Below are positions 4,003-24,122 of a stretch of DNA of 32,000 nucleotides, in pieces. The notes under the pieces are model-generated. The model saw nothing but the letters and a program-made list of their open reading frames with translations, did no database searches and was not told the origin of the DNA. The stretch comes from Candidatus Omnitrophota bacterium (lineage in GTDB: Bacteria > Omnitrophota > Gorgyraeia > Zapsychrales > JANLHA01). The translations under genes were made by a program, and so were the position numbers. Each line of letters opens with the position of its first letter. Position 1 is the stretch's first letter. The stretch covers positions 2,430,001-2,462,000 of the forward strand of contig OY759724.1 in the NCBI GenBank assembly GCA_963662715.1, in the 5' to 3' direction.

Positions 4003-4554
4003 ATGATGGCGAAGAGAATTATTCTGGTGATTTGTTTGTTTTTATTCGGAGTCTCTGTGCCGGTCTTTGCCAACGAGATTGATATTTCTGTGCAGGGAAG
4101 TGTTTTTGATCAGAATAATGAATATTTTATGGATTTTGGTCAGATTCTTTCAAGAATTAAAAAAATGGACGAGGAGATTCCCGTACAGGCCGAATATGAG
4201 ACCGAGGCCCAGTATGAGGCAAGAATTCAGCCTTTTAAAGATAAGTTGGCAGAAATTTATGATTCGGAATACAATGTTTCACTTAAACCCAAAAGTTTCC
4301 CTTACGGAGAGGGTAAGGAATTTTACCGGTTTGTTCTGCGGTTCCCTTTCGCTATTTACAGAAAGGATGATTTTTCCAAGACAGAATCATTAGAATACGT
4401 GTATGAAGTCCCTTATAATGATGTAAATACTATCGCAGGGAAAATGGCCAATATGAAATTCATGCTGTACTTTAAAATTAAAGAAGACAAGACCGTGTCG
4501 ATTCGCAGAGCCGTGTTGATTGTTGATAATAAGAAAGTCCATGAATGGGACTGA
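4003..4554 (+). CDS. Secreted hypothetical protein
   Basis: AGGAGA SD lies upstream of the ATG at 4003. The signal peptide is MMAKRIILVICLFLFGVSVPVFA. The listed start at 3916 has no signal peptide or SD. Confidence 0.6.
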   Translation: MMAKRIILVICLFLFGVSVPVFANEIDISVQGSVFDQNNEYFMDFGQILSRIKKMDEEIPVQAEYETEAQYEARIQPFKDKLAEIYDSEYNVSLKPKSFPYGEGKEFYRFVLRFPFAIYRKDDFSKTESLEYVYEVPYNDVNTIAGKMANMKFMLYFKIKEDKTVSIRRAVLIVDNKKVHEWD

Positions 4555-4625
4555 GGAAAGCCCATGATGGACAATTGAATATATAAAGCCCCCCATAAGA
4601 ATCAACCAATAAACGGGAGGGAAGA

Positions 4626-5423
4626 ATGAAAAGGAACATTTGTTTTGTCGCGTGGCTTCTTATGGGTGTTGTTATGTGGGTGGGTGAAGCAGGGGCCTGT
4701 AAAACTATTGCTCCGGAAGTGATGTCTAAAGGAGTCCAGTTTGTCCGGGAGAGAAAACCTCAGGAAGCGATTAGGGAATTTAATAAAGGGTTAGCGGACG
4801 GTTATCATAACCGCGGTGAAGCCTACCAGATAGCGGGCCGCTGGAATGAAGCGATGGCAGATTATAGTAAAGCTGCCATCTTGAACCCGAATGATTCACG
4901 GCCTTTTTACGGCCGGGCGCAGTATTATGCGGTGCAGGGGAGATTCGTTGATGCTCTGGAAGAATTAAACAGAGCCATTGCTATTAATGATTCTTCTTCC
5001 AAGGGGTATGTCCCGATGAGGGCCTGGATTTATGGCATGACCGGGGAGCTGGATTTTGCCCTTAAAGACTACAATCGTATTCTTGCGAATATTCCTGTGC
5101 AGCAAAAAAAGCCTATATATTTAGCCCAGCGCGGTTTTGTTTATTATTATAAAGGTGATTTTGAGAAGGCCTTGGCTGACTTCAATGCCGCTCTTAGTCT
5201 TAATCCCGGTGTGACTTTTGCGTATTTTGGACGGAGTTTGACTTATGCCATGCTGGGCCAGCAGGAAAAGGCTAAGGCTGATCTGGAGAGAGTCCGCCAG
5301 ATCAATGACGGGCTGGCCAGGCATTACTGGCAAAGGTCCAAAGATCTTCGTCATTATGGCCTGAAGAAAAAAGCGGACGAATATATAAAGTACGCGATTA
5401 TGATAGATCCTTCGTTAAATTAA
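4626..5423 (+). CDS. Secreted TPR-repeat protein
   Basis: GGGAGGG SD. Signal peptide MKRNICFVAWLLMGVVMWVGEAGA. Repeated 34-aa TPR signatures are present (e.g. YHNRGEAYQIAGRWNEAMADYSKAAILNPND, FYGRAQYYAVQGRFVDALEELNRAIAIND, YLAQRGFVYYYKGDFEKALADFNAALSLNP). Confidence 0.8.
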   Translation: MKRNICFVAWLLMGVVMWVGEAGACKTIAPEVMSKGVQFVRERKPQEAIREFNKGLADGYHNRGEAYQIAGRWNEAMADYSKAAILNPNDSRPFYGRAQYYAVQGRFVDALEELNRAIAINDSSSKGYVPMRAWIYGMTGELDFALKDYNRILANIPVQQKKPIYLAQRGFVYYYKGDFEKALADFNAALSLNPGVTFAYFGRSLTYAMLGQQEKAKADLERVRQINDGLARHYWQRSKDLRHYGLKKKADEYIKYAIMIDPSLN

Positions 5424-5473
5424 ATAAATTAAAGGGCTAAATTAAAGGACCAGTCCCCAAAAAGGGACAGGGC

Positions 5474-6168
5474 GTGGTTGGCCCGCTGTGCTGAATAAAA
5501 TTTGTGGAAGCGGGCACATTCTGGAATACGTTTCTGCGAAGTTATTGAAGGATATTGTTGATTACTGCTATTTCTGGAGAGATGCGAGAGTGGTTGGCCC
5601 GCTGTGCTGAATAAAATTTGTGGAAGCGGGCACATTCTGGAATACGTTTCTGCGAAGTTATTGAAGGATATTGTTGATTACTGCTATTTCTGGAGAGATG
5701 CGAGAGTGGTTGGCCCGCTGTGCTGAATAAAATTTGTGGAAGCGGGCACATTCTGGAATACGTTTCTGCGAAGTTATTGAAGGATATTGTTGATTACTGC
5801 TATTTCTGGAGAGATGCGAGAGTGGTTGGCCCGCTGTGCTGAATAAAATTTGTGGAAGCGGGCACATTCTGGAATACGTTTCTGCGAAGTTATTGAAGGA
5901 TATTGTTGATTACTGCCATTCATGGAGAGATGCGAGAGTGGTTGGCCCGCTGTGCTGAATAAAATTTGTGGAAGCGGGCACATTCTGGAATACGTTTCTG
6001 CGAAGTTATTGAAGGATATTATTGATTACTGCCATTCATGGAGAGATGCGAGAGTGGTTGGCCGATTGAGCTGGGATGACGGCTTGACAGATTTTTGAGG
6101 AAATCGGCACATTCTGGAATACGTTTCTGCGAAGTTATTGAAGGATATTGTTGATTACTGCCATTCAT
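5474..6168. repeat. Tandem array of 116-bp units, each made of a tRNA-Ser leader, the first 21 nt of tRNA-Ser and a 7-bp-stem hairpin
   Basis: Unit starts (GGAGAGATGCGAGAGTGGTTG) are at 5576, 5692, 5808, 5924 and 6040, spaced exactly 116 bp apart. A partial unit spans 5474-5575. The last unit is a 129-bp variant. The genuine tRNA starts at 6169 with the same 21 nt. Units are near-identical apart from the leader variant CTGCTATTTCT versus CTGCCATTCAT. Confidence 0.92.
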
Positions 6169-6257
6169 GGAGAGATGCGAGAGTGGTTGAATCGGGCGGT
6201 CTCGAAAACCGTTGTGCCTTTTAGGTACCCAGGGTTCGAATCCCTGTCTCTCCGCCA
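6169..6257 (+). tRNA. tRNA-Ser (anticodon CGA), class II with a long variable arm and encoded CCA
   Basis: Manual cloverleaf. Acceptor GGAGAGA/TCTCTCC. D-stem CGA/TCG with a GG-containing loop. Anticodon stem GCGGT/ACCGT with loop CT-CGA-AA. Variable arm GTGCC-TTTTA-GGTAC. T-arm CAGGG-TTCGAAT-CCCTG. Discriminator G followed by CCA. Confidence 0.9.
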
Positions 6258-6266
6258 TATAATTTT

Positions 6267-6318
6267 AGGAACTCGTAACATATTGATTGCATTTATGTTA
6301 CGGGTTCCTTTTTCTTTT
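6267..6318 (+). terminator. Rho-independent terminator of tRNA-Ser
   Basis: 15-bp stem AGGAACTCGTAACAT / ATGTTACGGGTTCCT with one G.U pair and a 13-nt loop, followed by TTTTCTTTT. Confidence 0.8.
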
Positions 6319-6450
6319 AGAGTCGCTTTAGTGCCCAAACTGAGCCTAGACATCAAAAGTATATATTAAGGTAAAAGTGAGTTGTCATTCGACAAGTCTG
6401 GAATTTGGTCCCAAAGAGTGGAATTAGAGGATAAGAAATTTTTTATCAAA

Positions 6451-6520
6451 GTTAAAAAAAGTCAACAGGAAGTATAGCCAGCCTATACCATTTTATTCAA
6501 ATTGGAATATAATAGGACAG
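6451..6520 (+). promoter_or_regulatory. Conserved ~70-bp upstream element, copy 1, containing a TATAAT-like box
   Basis: Ungapped alignment to 15631-15700 gives about 50/70 identities, including GTTAA-AAAAGTCA, CAGCCTATA and ATTTTATT..AATT..ATATAATA. It lies about 80 bp upstream of the lectin gene start. Confidence 0.35.
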
Positions 6521-6600
6521 ACTTTTTGAAATAGTTGTTAGTCTATCGGGGATAAGGTAAATTTAAAACAATAAAATAAGTGCAGACAAAGGAGATTAGA

Positions 6601-7218
6601 ATGAAAAAACTATTCTGTAATTTTCTTATTTCATTTTTTATATTTGCGCTGTCTCAGTCCGCTTCAGCGATGCCGGTCATTTGGAGTGGAAACGGACATG
6701 CTTATGAGCTTATTTCTTCAAATTTGACATGGCAGGAGGCCAGGGCAGCCACCCAAACACTCACGGCCCCGGAGGGCTTTCAACAGGGACATTTGGCCAC
6801 ATTTTCAGATGCGGAGGAAGAAAATTTTGTTATATCTTATTTTGGAGATGAGTTAAGTGGCGCATGGTTCGGTTTTACGGATGAATTACTAGAGGGAGAG
6901 TGGAGATGGATTGATGGGACTCCAGGTATTTGGCAAGATCCGGACAACTTTTCTGCTCCTATCCAAACCGCATATACCAACTGGCGTCCCAGTACGAGCG
7001 AACCTAATAATGAGCTTGGGGAAGATTATGCCGTCTTTTCCCTTTTCGATACCCCTGTTTTAAAATGGAATGATTTGGATAATGACAGAGGATTTTACGA
7101 CGGTTATTTGGTCGAGTATAGCCCCGGTTCACCGGTTATCCCGGAACCGACCACCTTGTTTATGTTTAGTGTGGGAATAACAGGTCTTTGTTTCCATAGA
7201 AAAAGTCGGCTACCATAG
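6601..7218 (+). CDS. C-type lectin domain protein with a PEP-CTERM sorting signal
   Basis: AAGGAG SD lies before the ATG at 6601. Signal peptide MKKLFCNFLISFFIFALSQSASA. CTLD hallmarks are WQEARA, GHLATFSDAEEENFV, WFGFTDELLEGEWRWIDGTP, an EPN motif and a WND motif. The C-terminus has PEP, then a TM segment (TTLFMFSVGITGLCF), then a basic tail HRKSR. Confidence 0.85.
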   Translation: MKKLFCNFLISFFIFALSQSASAMPVIWSGNGHAYELISSNLTWQEARAATQTLTAPEGFQQGHLATFSDAEEENFVISYFGDELSGAWFGFTDELLEGEWRWIDGTPGIWQDPDNFSAPIQTAYTNWRPSTSEPNNELGEDYAVFSLFDTPVLKWNDLDNDRGFYDGYLVEYSPGSPVIPEPTTLFMFSVGITGLCFHRKSRLP

Positions 7219-7353
7219 AGTAAAGGCCTATCACTGTCCGGACAGCAAGAAGCCGTCAGAGATCGACGCTGTTTAGTGTATATGTTGAAATATTAATAGT
7301 TTATCCCCGATGATGCCAGGTCCATTGGTGGAAAAGATTGGCCAGCATAATCT

Positions 7354-8322
7354 ATGAAAAGCAATTTAGATAATCTTGTCGAAGATCTAAAAACCTCCAA
7401 TTTAGCTGTATTCGTTGGCGCTGGTGTGACTTGTGAAGTTACGGGTGTTACATGGAAAGAACTTGTGTCGAATTTGCTGAAGAGCGCTGTCAATGCTTTC
7501 TTTGCTGGGGAACGGGATAAAGGCGACCCTGATGAACTGATATCTTGGCTGGACCGGAAGAAAAAGGATTGCTCTTTTACACAATATGAACAAGCGACAT
7601 TAATTAGGCGTTTTTGGGGCGACCAGTATTTGTACCGCTTACAGGCTGAAATATATAAAAAGCAAAGAAGTTTTTCAAAAGAAGAGTTGCCTAAATACCC
7701 TATGCTTCAAAGAGTCGCAGAGTTATGCCTTCGCCGTGCTTCCGTTGTAATTAATTACAACTATGATTTTTTCCTGGATCAGGCCATGAAGGCCCTTGAG
7801 CAAGACGGCCCGCAAACCGAAATCATTTTTGGGCCGGTAGACCTGAGGAAGAAAGTGTCTGTGAAAAAGAGGATGTTGCCAGTTTATCATGTCCATGGCA
7901 GATTGGTGCCGAGTGAGATCCCACCCAACGGGGTCGAGGCGGCCATAGTACTATGTCAGGAAGATTATTTTAAGATGATGCTGGAGCCATTTTGCTGGCA
8001 AACCGTCACGCAGGTGCAATGCTTAAGAGACTATACTTGTCTTTTTGTGGGAACGTCATTAACCGATTTGAATATGCTGCGAATGCTGCAGCATGCTTAT
8101 GCGTATAAGGCTACCCATAGTGCTTATGTTGTTTTTTCTGCCGATAATTTGGTTAAGGATAGAAAGCTTAAGAAAATGAAACAAAGGGTTTATTCTACCT
8201 TATTGGATGATATGGGAGTGCGGATTATTTTAAGTGACGGCGGCTTATCGCAACTGCCACAAAAAATTGAAGAGTTAAATAACCGGCTGGACAAGGAGGT
8301 GCTGTCCAATGACCAAAAGTAA
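7354..8322 (+). CDS. SIR2-like (SIR2_2 family) protein, a putative NAD+-consuming effector
   Basis: Motifs appear in canonical SIR2_2 order: LAVFVGAGVT (Rossmann GAG), VINYNYDFFLDQ (TTNYD-like, Asn retained), VYHVHGRL (LHG-like, His retained), IVLCQEDY, and LFVGTSLTDLNMLRML (FxGxSLxD). The protein is 322 aa and is essentially the SIR2 domain alone. Confidence 0.8.
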   Translation: MKSNLDNLVEDLKTSNLAVFVGAGVTCEVTGVTWKELVSNLLKSAVNAFFAGERDKGDPDELISWLDRKKKDCSFTQYEQATLIRRFWGDQYLYRLQAEIYKKQRSFSKEELPKYPMLQRVAELCLRRASVVINYNYDFFLDQAMKALEQDGPQTEIIFGPVDLRKKVSVKKRMLPVYHVHGRLVPSEIPPNGVEAAIVLCQEDYFKMMLEPFCWQTVTQVQCLRDYTCLFVGTSLTDLNMLRMLQHAYAYKATHSAYVVFSADNLVKDRKLKKMKQRVYSTLLDDMGVRIILSDGGLSQLPQKIEELNNRLDKEVLSNDQK

Positions 8323-10171
8323 AAAAAGTTCACCACAGCAAAAAACTAAGGAAGCAATGAGTCAAGTTAAGTATAAGACGGATGTGCAAGGCCTTGATGA
8401 TATTTTGCGAGGCGGGTTTGAATTGCCCCCTCAAGAAGAGGCAAAGAACAATGCCAGTTTATTAGTTTTAATTAAAGGGGCTTCCGGTACGGGTAAAACT
8501 ACCTTGTCTCTGCAAATAGCATGCAGTGCAACAAAGTGGCCAGAGAAATTCCATAAGGATGTTTTGTATTTCAGCTGTGAGCAGACGCATCAGGATATTT
8601 ATTTTAAGTGCCAGCAATTAGCTTTACAGGCTAAAATACCAAGCGGGCCAAATGATGTCTCCCCGGAAGCAGGGATCGCCGTTCAGGATATTAGCAGTCT
8701 GTCTGAAGTCACGGGTGAACAGCCGTTCGAAAGTCTCAGTTCCACGCTCACTCGTGCGAATGGCATATTTGATAAAATTTCAAAGAAAAAAAGCAGATCA
8801 AGACTGATTGTTGTAGACGGATTAAACGCGTTGACACAGAAAGAACGGGAGCTGTTAGAAATTCAGCGCCTACTTAAGCTTCTGCGTCAAAAAAGCTTAG
8901 TCAGTATAATCGTTTTTGAGGAGGCTCATGAGACGGACGCGCTGGATTATTTGGTAGATATGGTTATTGAAATGACGGGGAATGACGCAGAGAATGAGTC
9001 TGAATATTTTATAAACCATCTCCGTATTTCAAAATCAAGATATCAACAGAGCGCTTTGGGGTGGCATCAGTATAAAATCCGAGGTCGCAAGGAGGGGAAA
9101 AAGCCAAAAGATGATGGACAGTATTTAGGGGTGGAAGTCTTTCCCTCGCTTCATTTTCATGTTCATAAGACCCCCAACCATGTTCACGATGAAATGATGC
9201 GTTCCTGCTTTTCGGTTGTAGATCCCCGAGTTAGAGAAGAGGCCGTCCCTGAATATATAGAAGATGATGCTTCTATTATTTCTTTTTTGCTGAATTTTGG
9301 CACGACTGAACATCCGGTATTTAAACGCGGTAGTTCAACGGCGATTCTCGGCCCAAGACAAACCTTTAAAACTCAGCTGACATTGGATTTTTTGAGGGCT
9401 GGATACGAGAAAAACGAAAGCGGTTTATTGTTGTCTCTTATGGATAACCCCGGAGACATAAGAAAAGAAAGAGAGAGTTTATGTAAACGGTATTGCTTAA
9501 AAGAAGAAAGATGTGCTGATTGGAGTGCTTGTTATAAAAATGTCTATAATTTTCACTTTCGGCCGGGATGTATTTCTTCCTCAGAATTTTTTCAAAAAAT
9601 GGAAGCCAGACTGGATCTCTCCGAAAAAAAAGAAGAAGATGTCCCCGTAAAGAGGCTGGTCCTTTGGGATATGACGCAGATTGAATACCGTTTTCCATTA
9701 ATGAAAGCTGATGAAATGTTTCTGCCCGCCCTAATGGATTATCTTAAATATTCTAAAAATAGAAATGGAGCTAATAGGAAAATCACTTCTGTTTTTATGG
9801 GGGCGGCTAACACCCCTTTAGCTGCCGCCGCTTCGACAATGGCAGACAATGTTATTTTTTGCTGGCAAGATACATTGACAAGGCAAAATGCGGTAACAAT
9901 AGAAAAAGAACTCTTCGATGGGATCGATGGGATTGCCCTTTATTTGGATAGGATTGAGGGAATTCCCAGTGAAAGCCGAATATTTTTTCTTAAAATGAGA
10001 GAAAAAAAGAATTCAGCATACGTGGATATTGATACTAGGACTAAAAAACAATTGGAAGAGCGTATTACGCTGGTTAAAGATCTGCAAAATTTGCTTAATG
10101 CGCAAGACCCAATCGAACAAATCCGGCGGAAGCATGGTTTTGTTACGTCTATGGACTTAAAGCTAAAATAA
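8309..10171 (+). CDS. Double-domain KaiC-like (RecA-superfamily) ATPase with an intact N-terminal domain and a degenerate C-terminal P-loop
   Basis: The ATG at 8309 overlaps the SIR2 gene by 14 nt. N-domain motifs are GLDDILRGGF...LVLIKGASGTGKTTLSLQIA (Walker A at 8477-8500), VLYFSCEQ (the KaiC 'sfEE' position) and RLIVVDGLNAL (Walker B). The second domain has SSTAILGPRQTFKTQLTLDFL (9350-9373, where the Gly before Lys is replaced by Phe) and KRLVLWDMT. Confidence 0.75.
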   Translation: MTKSKKSSPQQKTKEAMSQVKYKTDVQGLDDILRGGFELPPQEEAKNNASLLVLIKGASGTGKTTLSLQIACSATKWPEKFHKDVLYFSCEQTHQDIYFKCQQLALQAKIPSGPNDVSPEAGIAVQDISSLSEVTGEQPFESLSSTLTRANGIFDKISKKKSRSRLIVVDGLNALTQKERELLEIQRLLKLLRQKSLVSIIVFEEAHETDALDYLVDMVIEMTGNDAENESEYFINHLRISKSRYQQSALGWHQYKIRGRKEGKKPKDDGQYLGVEVFPSLHFHVHKTPNHVHDEMMRSCFSVVDPRVREEAVPEYIEDDASIISFLLNFGTTEHPVFKRGSSTAILGPRQTFKTQLTLDFLRAGYEKNESGLLLSLMDNPGDIRKERESLCKRYCLKEERCADWSACYKNVYNFHFRPGCISSSEFFQKMEARLDLSEKKEEDVPVKRLVLWDMTQIEYRFPLMKADEMFLPALMDYLKYSKNRNGANRKITSVFMGAANTPLAAAASTMADNVIFCWQDTLTRQNAVTIEKELFDGIDGIALYLDRIEGIPSESRIFFLKMREKKNSAYVDIDTRTKKQLEERITLVKDLQNLLNAQDPIEQIRRKHGFVTSMDLKLK

Positions 10172-23246: not shown

Positions 23247-24122
23247 TTATCCTTCAGTCGTCGTGTCTGTCCAAGGGGCTGTAGGAGCAGTCGGTCCATT
23301 AGGTGCTGTTGGTTCGTTCGGTCCGACCGGAGCGCTAGGTCCTACGGGTTCGTTCGGTCCAACCGGAGCGCTGGGTCCTACGGGTTCGTTAGGTCCGACC
23401 GGAGCGCTGGGTCCTACAGGCTCGTTCGGTCCAACCGGAACGCTAGGTCCTACGGGTTCATTCGGTCCGACCGGAGCGCTAGGTCCTACGGGTTCGTTAG
23501 GTCCGACCGGAGCGCTAGGTCCTACGGGTTCGTTAGGTCCGACCGGAGCGCTAGGTCCTACGGGTTCATTCGGTCCAACCGGAGCGCTAGGTCCGACAGG
23601 TTCGTTAGGTCCGACCGGAGCGCTGGGTCCAACGGGTTCGTTCGGCCCGACCGGTTCATTCGGTCCAACCGGAGCGCTAGGCCCGACCGGTTCGTTCGGT
23701 CCAACCGGAGCGCTAGGCCCGACAGGTTCGTTTGGCCCCACCGGAGCGCTAGGTCCTACGGGTTCATTCGGTCCAACCGGAGCGCTAGGTCCTACAGGTT
23801 CGTTCGGTCCAACCGGAGCGCTAGGCCCGACAGGTTCGTTTGGCCCCACCGGTTCATTCGGTCCAACCGGAGCGCTAGGTCCGACAGGTTCGTTTGGCCC
23901 CACCGGTTCATTCGGTCCAACCGGAGCGCTAGGTCCGACAGGTTCGTTCGGTCCTACAGGTTCATTCGGCCCCACCGGAGCATTTGGTGAGTTCGGCTCT
24001 GTTGGCGGAACAGGTTGTGCTGATGTCGTAGTGTAGAGAACGAAGGAAACAACACACAACACTACGAAAGAACAGCCCATGAGCATTTTGGATTTTCTTA
24101 GCTTTGTTAAATTTTGGAACAT
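23247..24122 (-). CDS. Secreted proline-rich protein built of about 40 tandem hexapeptides (PNEPVG / PSAPVG)
   Basis: On the minus strand GAAGGAG lies 5 nt upstream of the ATG at 24122. Signal peptide ...[29 protein letters not shown]|QP. The terminator lies just past its stop. The repeat is P-x-x-P-V-G throughout. Confidence 0.75.
23300..23985. repeat. 18-bp / 36-bp tandem DNA repeat underlying the Pro-rich protein (approximate bounds)
   Basis: Iterated GGTCC(G/A)ACCGGAGCGCT(A/G)GGTCC(T/G)AC(G/A)GGTTC(G/A)TT(C/A) units. All three + frames and the - frame stay open across it. Confidence 0.9.

Follow-up and report, generated by a model that had tools for sequence, protein, structure and literature searches.

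The 32-kb stretch of Omnitrophota DNA analysed here (the window) contains a tRNA-Ser(CGA) gene that is preceded by a 716-bp tandem array, the units of which each carry a stub of the 5' end of this tRNA, an inverted-repeat module and a copy of the tRNA leader. More likely than not, this array is the product of a head-to-tail amplification of a 116-bp piece of DNA, i.e. of a microhomology-seeded tandem duplication that was expanded by unequal crossing-over, with the tRNA stubs being mere passengers and a single gene remaining functional. That the array is 5'-sided and tandem, and in this respect unlike the duplications of tRNA 3' ends generated by integrases, had already been noted in a preliminary description of this DNA and is borne out here; the tRNA 3' end is present only once within the window and no integrase was found in it.

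Anatomy and boundaries of the array

Tandem Repeats Finder (TRF) reports just one array in this region (5474-6189; period 116, 6.1 copies, 95% matches, score 1182), which adjoins and runs into the tRNA gene at 6169-6257 (table 1). Each unit is made up of a 21-nt tRNA stub, an inverted-repeat module (H or, in the tRNA-proximal unit, H2) and a 60-nt leader copy; by unit alignment, the repeated content corresponds to the entire -95 to -1 region of the tRNA. The units are 116 nt long, with the tRNA-proximal one alone having 129 nt. The stub, GGAGAGATGCGAGAGTGGTTG, is identical to nucleotides 1-21 of the tRNA and occurs exactly at 5576, 5692, 5808, 5924, 6040 and, as the start of the gene itself, at 6169, with no occurrence being expected by chance (100 shuffles). 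The units differ in diagnostic positions that define three leader types and two hairpin types, and these differences are ordered along the array: leader type La is found in the three distal units and leaders ending in CATTCAT in the three proximal ones, the last of these being the genuine leader, which in the unit alignment gives the order (H-La) x3, H-Lb, H-Lb', H2-Lb. Because the units differ by such ordered diagnostic changes, at least three distinct unit types must be real. The units, stub positions and two hairpin forms given in the preliminary description were accurate; it had also correctly recognized that the leader is reiterated in each unit, but the length of about 59 nt given there has to be replaced by the measured 60 nt. 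Minus-strand open reading frames of 68-69 amino acids in the array were considered as coding sequences and rejected, because 116 is not a multiple of three, the frame drifts with each unit and the translation is not periodic.

Table 1. Features of the array and of the adjoining tRNA-Ser(CGA) gene (positions in the window).
Feature	Position	Strand	Basis
Whole tandem array (five periods of 116 nt, one period of 129 nt, plus 7 nt)	5474..6189	+	TRF, unit alignment
Left boundary GTGGTTG, 7-bp direct repeat of tRNA nt 15-21, proposed microhomology R1	5474..5480	+	sequence; unit homology starts exactly here
Module H, copy 1 (GCCCGCT-21 nt-AGCGGGC, 35 nt)	5481..5515	+	inverted-repeat search; fold z = -2.8
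Module H, copy 2	5597..5631	+	inverted-repeat search
Module H, copy 3	5713..5747	+	inverted-repeat search
Module H, copy 4	5829..5863	+	inverted-repeat search
Module H, copy 5	5945..5979	+	inverted-repeat search
Module H2, tRNA-proximal variant (GCCGATT-34 nt-AATCGGC, 48 nt)	6061..6108	+	inverted-repeat search; fold z = -2.9
Terminator-like inner stem-loop and T-run within H2, absent from H	6066..6097	+	terminator/promoter scan
TTGACA in the H2 loop, candidate -35 element; no other consensus -35 hexamer in the 150 nt preceding the tRNA	6084..6089	+	read from sequence; below scan threshold
Leader copies, type La (60 nt, ending TATTTCT)	5516..5575, 5632-5691, 5748-5807	+	unit alignment
Leader copy, type Lb (60 nt, ending CATTCAT, same as genuine leader)	5864..5923	+	unit alignment
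Leader copy Lb' (Lb with G-to-A at 6021)	5980-6039	+	unit alignment
Genuine tRNA leader (60 nt, type Lb)	6109..6168	+	sequence
tRNA stub (nt 1-21), copy 1	5576..5596	+	exact 21-mer
tRNA stub, copies 2-5	5692-5712, 5808-5828, 5924-5944, 6040-6060	+	exact 21-mer
Intact tRNA-Ser(CGA) with encoded CCA	6169..6257	+	ARAGORN; Rfam RF00005, 53.1 bits
Right boundary GTGGTTG (nt 15-21 of the real tRNA), proposed microhomology R2	6183..6189	+	sequence, TRF
16-bp stem-loop followed by T-run, likely terminator of the tRNA transcript	6267..6318	+	inverted-repeat search, sequence

With tandem repeats being error-prone in assemblies (PMC6868369), the array or its copy number might in principle derive from a mis-assembled repeat. 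However, ordered differences between units, comprising three leader types and two hairpin types, are not what an assembler invents, and the source contig is 3.36 Mb long, which points to long reads that would span 716 bp. We therefore consider an assembly artefact to be very improbable.

At both ends the array is bounded by the same 7-bp direct repeat, GTGGTTG, which had previously been overlooked. On the left side, the flank upstream of 5474 reads GGGC where the other units have GAGA, with no match further upstream; on the right side, inter-unit homology ends at 6189, in the GTGGTTG of the real tRNA. In length the array amounts to six periods and exactly 7 nt more; the chance of homology running 7 nt or more past a blunt joint would be approximately (1/4)^7. 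The segment at 5474-5575 had been taken for a partial sixth unit, but it is no decayed copy; its first letters are exactly the heptamer that represents nucleotides 15-21 of the tRNA. This boundary would also explain the length of the stubs, which end at nucleotide 21 just as GTGGTTG does in the D-loop of the tRNA.

Tandem duplication by pairing of two short direct repeats leaves a classic footprint of the kind seen here, with R1-S-R2 being converted into R1-S-R-S-R2. In experiments with E. coli, microhomologies of 3-12 bp were found at the break points of tandem duplications, which was followed by amplification to 2-8 copies (PMC6614815). With these the present array shares a short direct repeat at both ends, a length of n periods plus the repeat and the presence of several copies. 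In contrast to the laboratory duplications, which are recent, kb-scale and laboratory-selected, it has a unit of 116 bp, is old enough for unit-specific changes to have accumulated and features one strongly diverged edge unit.

For the locus described here, we infer an ancestral order of flank-GTGGTTG-hairpin-leader-tRNA. The amplified piece would have comprised an inverted repeat already present in front of the tRNA, together with the 60-nt leader and the first part of tRNA-Ser(CGA). Slipped or illegitimate pairing of the two GTGGTTG heptamers would have duplicated everything between them and thereby generated a new joint between tRNA nucleotide 21 and the hairpin, and homologous unequal crossing-over between the resulting long repeats may then have raised the number of copies to six. 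The 21-nt stubs would be passengers, with a length that has no biological meaning in itself but would be fixed by the site of the heptamer in the D-loop, and there would still be one functional gene, as the last copy alone continues into the rest of the tRNA. The ordered succession of unit blocks along the array fits what unequal exchange produces.

Some considerations qualify this scenario. The 7-nt left end could instead represent a unit truncated by a later deletion, in which case the heptamer would be uninformative with respect to the origin of the array. Moreover, tandem arrays are unstable in bacteria, and selection might be maintaining an array whose six copies are old enough to have diverged.

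The hairpin modules and transcription of the tRNA gene

H is the insert in five of the six cases, in identical form, with H2 being the exception. The two modules are homologous at both ends (9/13 and 11/15 identities at fixed register), yet they are approximately 30% diverged and separated by a 13-nt indel, which makes the centre of H2 longer, whereas the flanking 81 nt are identical. Such divergence right beside an identical stretch is not explained by a simple one-unit amplification and needs an extra assumption, i.e. that the long repeat was homogenized, that the proximal promoter has been under selection or that the palindrome underwent a complex mutation.

Within the 7-bp stem, three adjacent pairs are compensated between the two modules (CGC/GCG in H, GAT/ATC in H2). 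Both hairpins fold better than shuffled sequences (z = -2.8 for H and -2.9 for H2, with 2/200 and 1/200 shuffles, respectively, being as good), and the fold of H2 is more stable on the plus strand than on the minus strand (-14.5 versus -6.6 kcal/mol). Stem compensation and better-than-shuffle folds are a hint that the hairpin matters. Imperfect palindromes can also regain complementarity by intrastrand template switching, without selection, and the preserved complementarity of the stem could be due either to a real cis-element or to self-correction of a quasi-palindrome by this route. Thus, the compensated arms that the preliminary description had seen in the tRNA-proximal unit are there, in the form of three stem pairs, but the selection on structure that it took them to suggest has a weaker basis than stated, this being one comparison of two variants, for which template switching could suffice.

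A similarity of the 3' arm to the D-arm of the tRNA, also proposed initially, comes down to a match of 6 nt, with alignments of the inserts to the tRNA being no better than those of shuffled sequences (p = 0.14-0.73). A derivation of the hairpin or leader from the tRNA was rejected on the same grounds, as alignments of H, H2 and the leader are all at shuffle level (p = 0.10-0.94), and a dispersed REP- or MITE-like element was dismissed as well, because there is no other copy of the hairpin or loop sequences in the 32 kb.

Better-than-shuffle folds, compensated stem pairs and the plus-strand bias of H2 stability would all be in line with an array of small structured RNAs, in which each unit gives rise to an RNA of about 60-116 nt that comprises the tRNA 5' stub and the hairpin, as a 5'-side counterpart of the E. 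coli RtT/TLR RNAs, i.e. of tRNA-linked repeats (TLRs), some of which are processed sRNAs (PMC8144298). The hairpin is the sole support for this reading, however. Whole units fold no better than shuffles (z = -1.0 to -1.3), and a cmscan search of 4500-7500 against Rfam, which includes the known tRNA-operon RNAs, returned at E <= 10 the tRNA itself along with chance-level matches and no family for the units. There is no promoter-like site in the units and no terminator after H, and with two sequence variants covariation amounts to a single comparison. Furthermore, if the TTGACA-containing promoter discussed below is real, the proximal hairpin would be located upstream of the transcription start. 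Structured non-coding RNAs, as suggested at first, are thus an improbable explanation of the array.

Promoters were another explanation put forward in the preliminary description, with each unit adding an amplified copy. A consensus scan detected no sigma-70-like site at its threshold on the plus strand of the array, although such sites are enriched in the window (57 versus 36.8 ± 5.8 in shuffles) and several are located in front of genes; by this enrichment, the genome appears to use promoters of this kind. The TTGACA hexamer in the loop of H2 is located 18 nt before CACATT (6108-6113), a weak -10 element with 3/6 matches, and in the distal H modules the hexamer in the corresponding place is CTGAAT. 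In other genomes, the tRNA-Ser(CGA) genes among the matches listed have TTGACA/TATAAT-type promoters 20-50 nt upstream. Judged from sequence, TTGACA in H2 is a candidate for the -35 element of the tRNA promoter, transcription of the tRNA most likely starts in the proximal unit, and the five distal units are probably promoter-poor and largely inert extra upstream copies. Such an arrangement argues against amplified promoters, an idea already weakened by the scan and by the confinement of TTGACA to the proximal unit, with weak or non-canonical promoters being the form in which it could still apply.

A broader version of this idea is an adaptive amplification of the control region, with a promoter, an activating element or a protein-binding site in every unit, such that six copies raise or tune the expression of tRNA-Ser(CGA) and read-through transcripts are trimmed to the mature tRNA by RNase P. 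It accommodates the fact that the whole -95 to -1 region is repeated and that the array has persisted long enough for unit-specific changes, and since 116 bp correspond to approximately 11 helical turns, the A-tract AATAAAATTT in each H loop would be in phase. In addition, measurable selection acts on the supply of tRNA-Ser in Pseudomonas fluorescens: when serCGA is lost, duplications make up for it (PMC7661048). Yet no unit has a sigma-70-like site at the scan threshold in a genome that seems to use them, CTGAAT takes the place of TTGACA in the distal units, and a stub and hairpin in a long precursor would be useless at best, all of which leaves control-region amplification as a tentative and rather unlikely alternative. 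If the array indeed arose by microhomology-seeded duplication, its distal units would at most modulate transcription of the tRNA, be it by weak read-through, in-phase A-tracts or extra protein-binding sites, and they would make the locus variable in copy number.

Gene neighbourhood and searches for relatives

Several genes around the array deserve description in their own right. The first gene 3' of the tRNA (6580-7218, plus strand) codes for a protein of 212 aa that combines a C-type lectin domain with a PEP-CTERM sorting signal and has no match in the PADLOC library of defence proteins. It is followed at 7354-10171 (plus strand) by two genes with an overlap of 14 nt, the first being SIR2-like (PF13289) and the second encoding a KaiC/STAND-like P-loop ATPase of 620 aa; the SIR2-like protein shows weak PADLOC matches to ThsA, Dsr1 and LmuA. 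This pair, located just downstream of the tRNA inside a stretch of lower G+C content (0.37-0.43, 6.5-14 kb), is a candidate two-gene defence module. Further away, an open reading frame at 23247-24122 (minus strand) encodes a 291-aa protein in which an N-terminal hydrophobic segment is followed by more than 30 tandem hexapeptides (EPVGPN / APVGPS), corresponding at the DNA level to a 36/108-bp tandem repeat at 23311-23981 with a local G+C content of 0.56.

Genes for tRNAs are common integration sites, and the stretch of lower G+C content with its SIR2-like and KaiC/STAND-like ATPase genes is located downstream of the tRNA gene described here. The array could accordingly be imagined as a series of scars of site-specific recombination, left by repeated integration and loss of elements that target the tRNA D-loop and bring along their own leader and 5' part. 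Yet the sizeable open reading frames of the 32-kb window contain no integrase, recombinase, transposase, Cas, ToxN-like or reverse-transcriptase domains, the tRNA 3' end is not repeated, and what lies between the repeats is just 35-48 nt, identical in five of six cases. Moreover, the junction of the 21-mer with a base other than A, as found in the array, has no counterpart in viral contigs, in 185,579 species genomes or in JGI metagenomes. Recombination scars thus are an extremely improbable source of the array. In duplications of att sites by integrases, each element gives rise to one copy of the 3' part of a tRNA, and an integrase gene and kilobases of element DNA separate the partial from the full copy; the window locus resembles these in having partial tRNA copies beside an intact gene, but differs by the absence of an integrase, of element DNA and of a 3' copy as well as by the small size of its inserts.

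Other array-like systems were compared as well. Type III toxin-antitoxin loci also feature a short tandem array of non-coding units, which a terminator separates from a protein gene downstream, but their ToxI-type antitoxin units are about 36 nt long and precede a gene for a ToxN-type endoribonuclease, whereas the 116-nt units described here precede a tRNA and the next gene is that for the C-type-lectin/PEP-CTERM protein; with no ToxN-like protein in the window, this assignment was rejected. So was that to a CRISPR array: CRISPR loci consist of short repeats (approximately 25-40 nt) and unique spacers with cas genes nearby, but here the conserved part is 81 nt long, five of the six 'spacers' are identical and the flanking open reading frames contain no cas domains. 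A retron or an integron was discarded too, as no matching proteins are encoded in the window.

Searches for the array elsewhere returned no relatives. The junction pattern (21-mer plus non-A base) had 0 matches in the 185,579 species genomes and 0 in JGI metagenomes, a 25-mer of the leader had 0 in JGI metagenomes, and blastn found no match to the proximal unit in phages and plasmids. Six matches to a 16-mer spanning the junction in viral contigs were set aside as chance matches within unrelated sequence. Exact-protein look-ups of three flanking proteins found nothing. For the TPR protein encoded in the upstream flank, the nearest homologues among 5.8 billion proteins are at most 58% identical and not syntenic, being located on contigs without a tRNA. 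With regard to one of these, P0002, which has the 58% identity (contigs L007-L010), it was observed that five of five independent assemblies break 31-170 nt after its stop codon (with sequence for four), which suggests a repeat or mobile element downstream of this gene in that organism.

A search of genomes with a 22-mer of the tRNA yielded at least 119 loci in many phyla, with 395 tRNA genes in these loci. The leader of the window tRNA occurs at none of the loci among the matches listed (at least 119), and there is no genuine 5' stub upstream of a tRNA among the 395 tRNA genes of these matches, the only apparent one (L029) having turned out to be a run of N. Stubs of the 3' end downstream of tRNA genes gave 47 tRNA/stub matches among the same 395 genes, a number that may count one stub for more than one tRNA-Ser paralogue.

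Some loci seen in this survey come closer to a repeated upstream element. At the contig end of an Elusimicrobia MAG (L123, 1-200, minus strand), a 5' fragment resembling tRNA-Ser(GGA), which extends from nucleotide 1 to the T-loop, is followed by 52 nt with two small hairpins, after which an identical second copy begins that is cut off by the contig end; ARAGORN called no tRNA in L123 1-200. This may be an independent upstream repeat of a 5' tRNA fragment, i.e. an incomplete analogue, or an assembly effect. In two Acidobacteriota MAGs (L043, L099), two tRNA-Ser genes are each preceded, at a distance of about 200 nt, by palindrome modules of approximately 85 nt (…GATTCACTCGCGCGCAGTGAGC…) that are duplicated twice. 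Repeated hairpin-bearing modules upstream of tRNA genes are thus not unique to the window.

A mirror image of tRNA-linked repeats

The preliminary description knew of no described element like this array, but the TLRs of E. coli are its mirror image. As a family they comprise 22 elements at ten loci and are mostly without known function (PMC8144298). They include the 178-bp repeat at tyrT-tyrV, or rttR (Egan & Landy 1978; Rudd 1999; both as cited in PMC8144298). We checked this locus in strain MG1655, where the 178-bp unit is present 3.1 times with 95% identity; the repeat, annotated as rttR/tpr, shares with tyrV the final 19 nt of the gene. It follows that tRNA termini do get caught in such arrays. 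TLRs and the window array have in common that non-coding tandem units lie directly against a tRNA gene, that each unit contains about 20 nt of one terminus plus flanking DNA, and that the array overlaps the real gene by the copied terminus. By contrast, TLRs directly follow a tRNA or rRNA gene inside its operon, their units end with 18-19 bp of the 3' end of the gene and they are transcribed by read-through of the tRNA operon, whereas the window array is upstream (5474-6168), its units hold the 5' 21 nt plus leader and they precede the gene. An Rfam search revealed no sequence similarity of the units to TLRs or tRNA-operon RNAs. The window array should therefore be called a mirror-image analogue of TLRs rather than a member of the family, from which it departs in side, in the terminus repeated and in homology.

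The tRNA survey also brought up Spirochaetota tRNA-Ser clusters (L012 1955-3100 from a Treponema MAG; L017, L026, L028, L060, L090, L113 and others), in which a module of approximately 90 nt is situated about 60-130 nt downstream of each tRNA-Ser. This module has the form GGGGATTCGATCGTGAG...GGGCGAATCCCCC..CTCCGT and repeats at its end the final 20-25 nt of the tRNA, which means that the architecture of the E. coli TLRs is present outside the enterics.

The literature searched contained no description of 5'-side arrays of tRNA stubs. The 5'-side array is rare and apparently undescribed, while its simplest reading is an ordinary one. A more far-reaching reading, which we regard as distinctly unlikely, is that it represents the first example of a maintained, copy-number-variable 5'-side counterpart of TLRs, which would tune transcription of the single-copy tRNA-Ser(CGA), for example via phased A-tracts or binding sites every 11 helical turns, or would yield unit-length stub-hairpin RNAs, with the hairpin being under structural selection, from which the compensated stem would result. 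Should selection maintain the array, TLRs would extend to the promoter side of genes, and the organism would possess a copy-number handle on the expression of a single-copy tRNA. If, as we favour, it is a product of slippage only, it would be a tidy natural case of a known process, in which a 7-bp microhomology in the D-loop seeds an array. Slippage would then explain the odd repetition of a '5' tRNA half' and serve as a warning to annotators that such stubs need no special biology.
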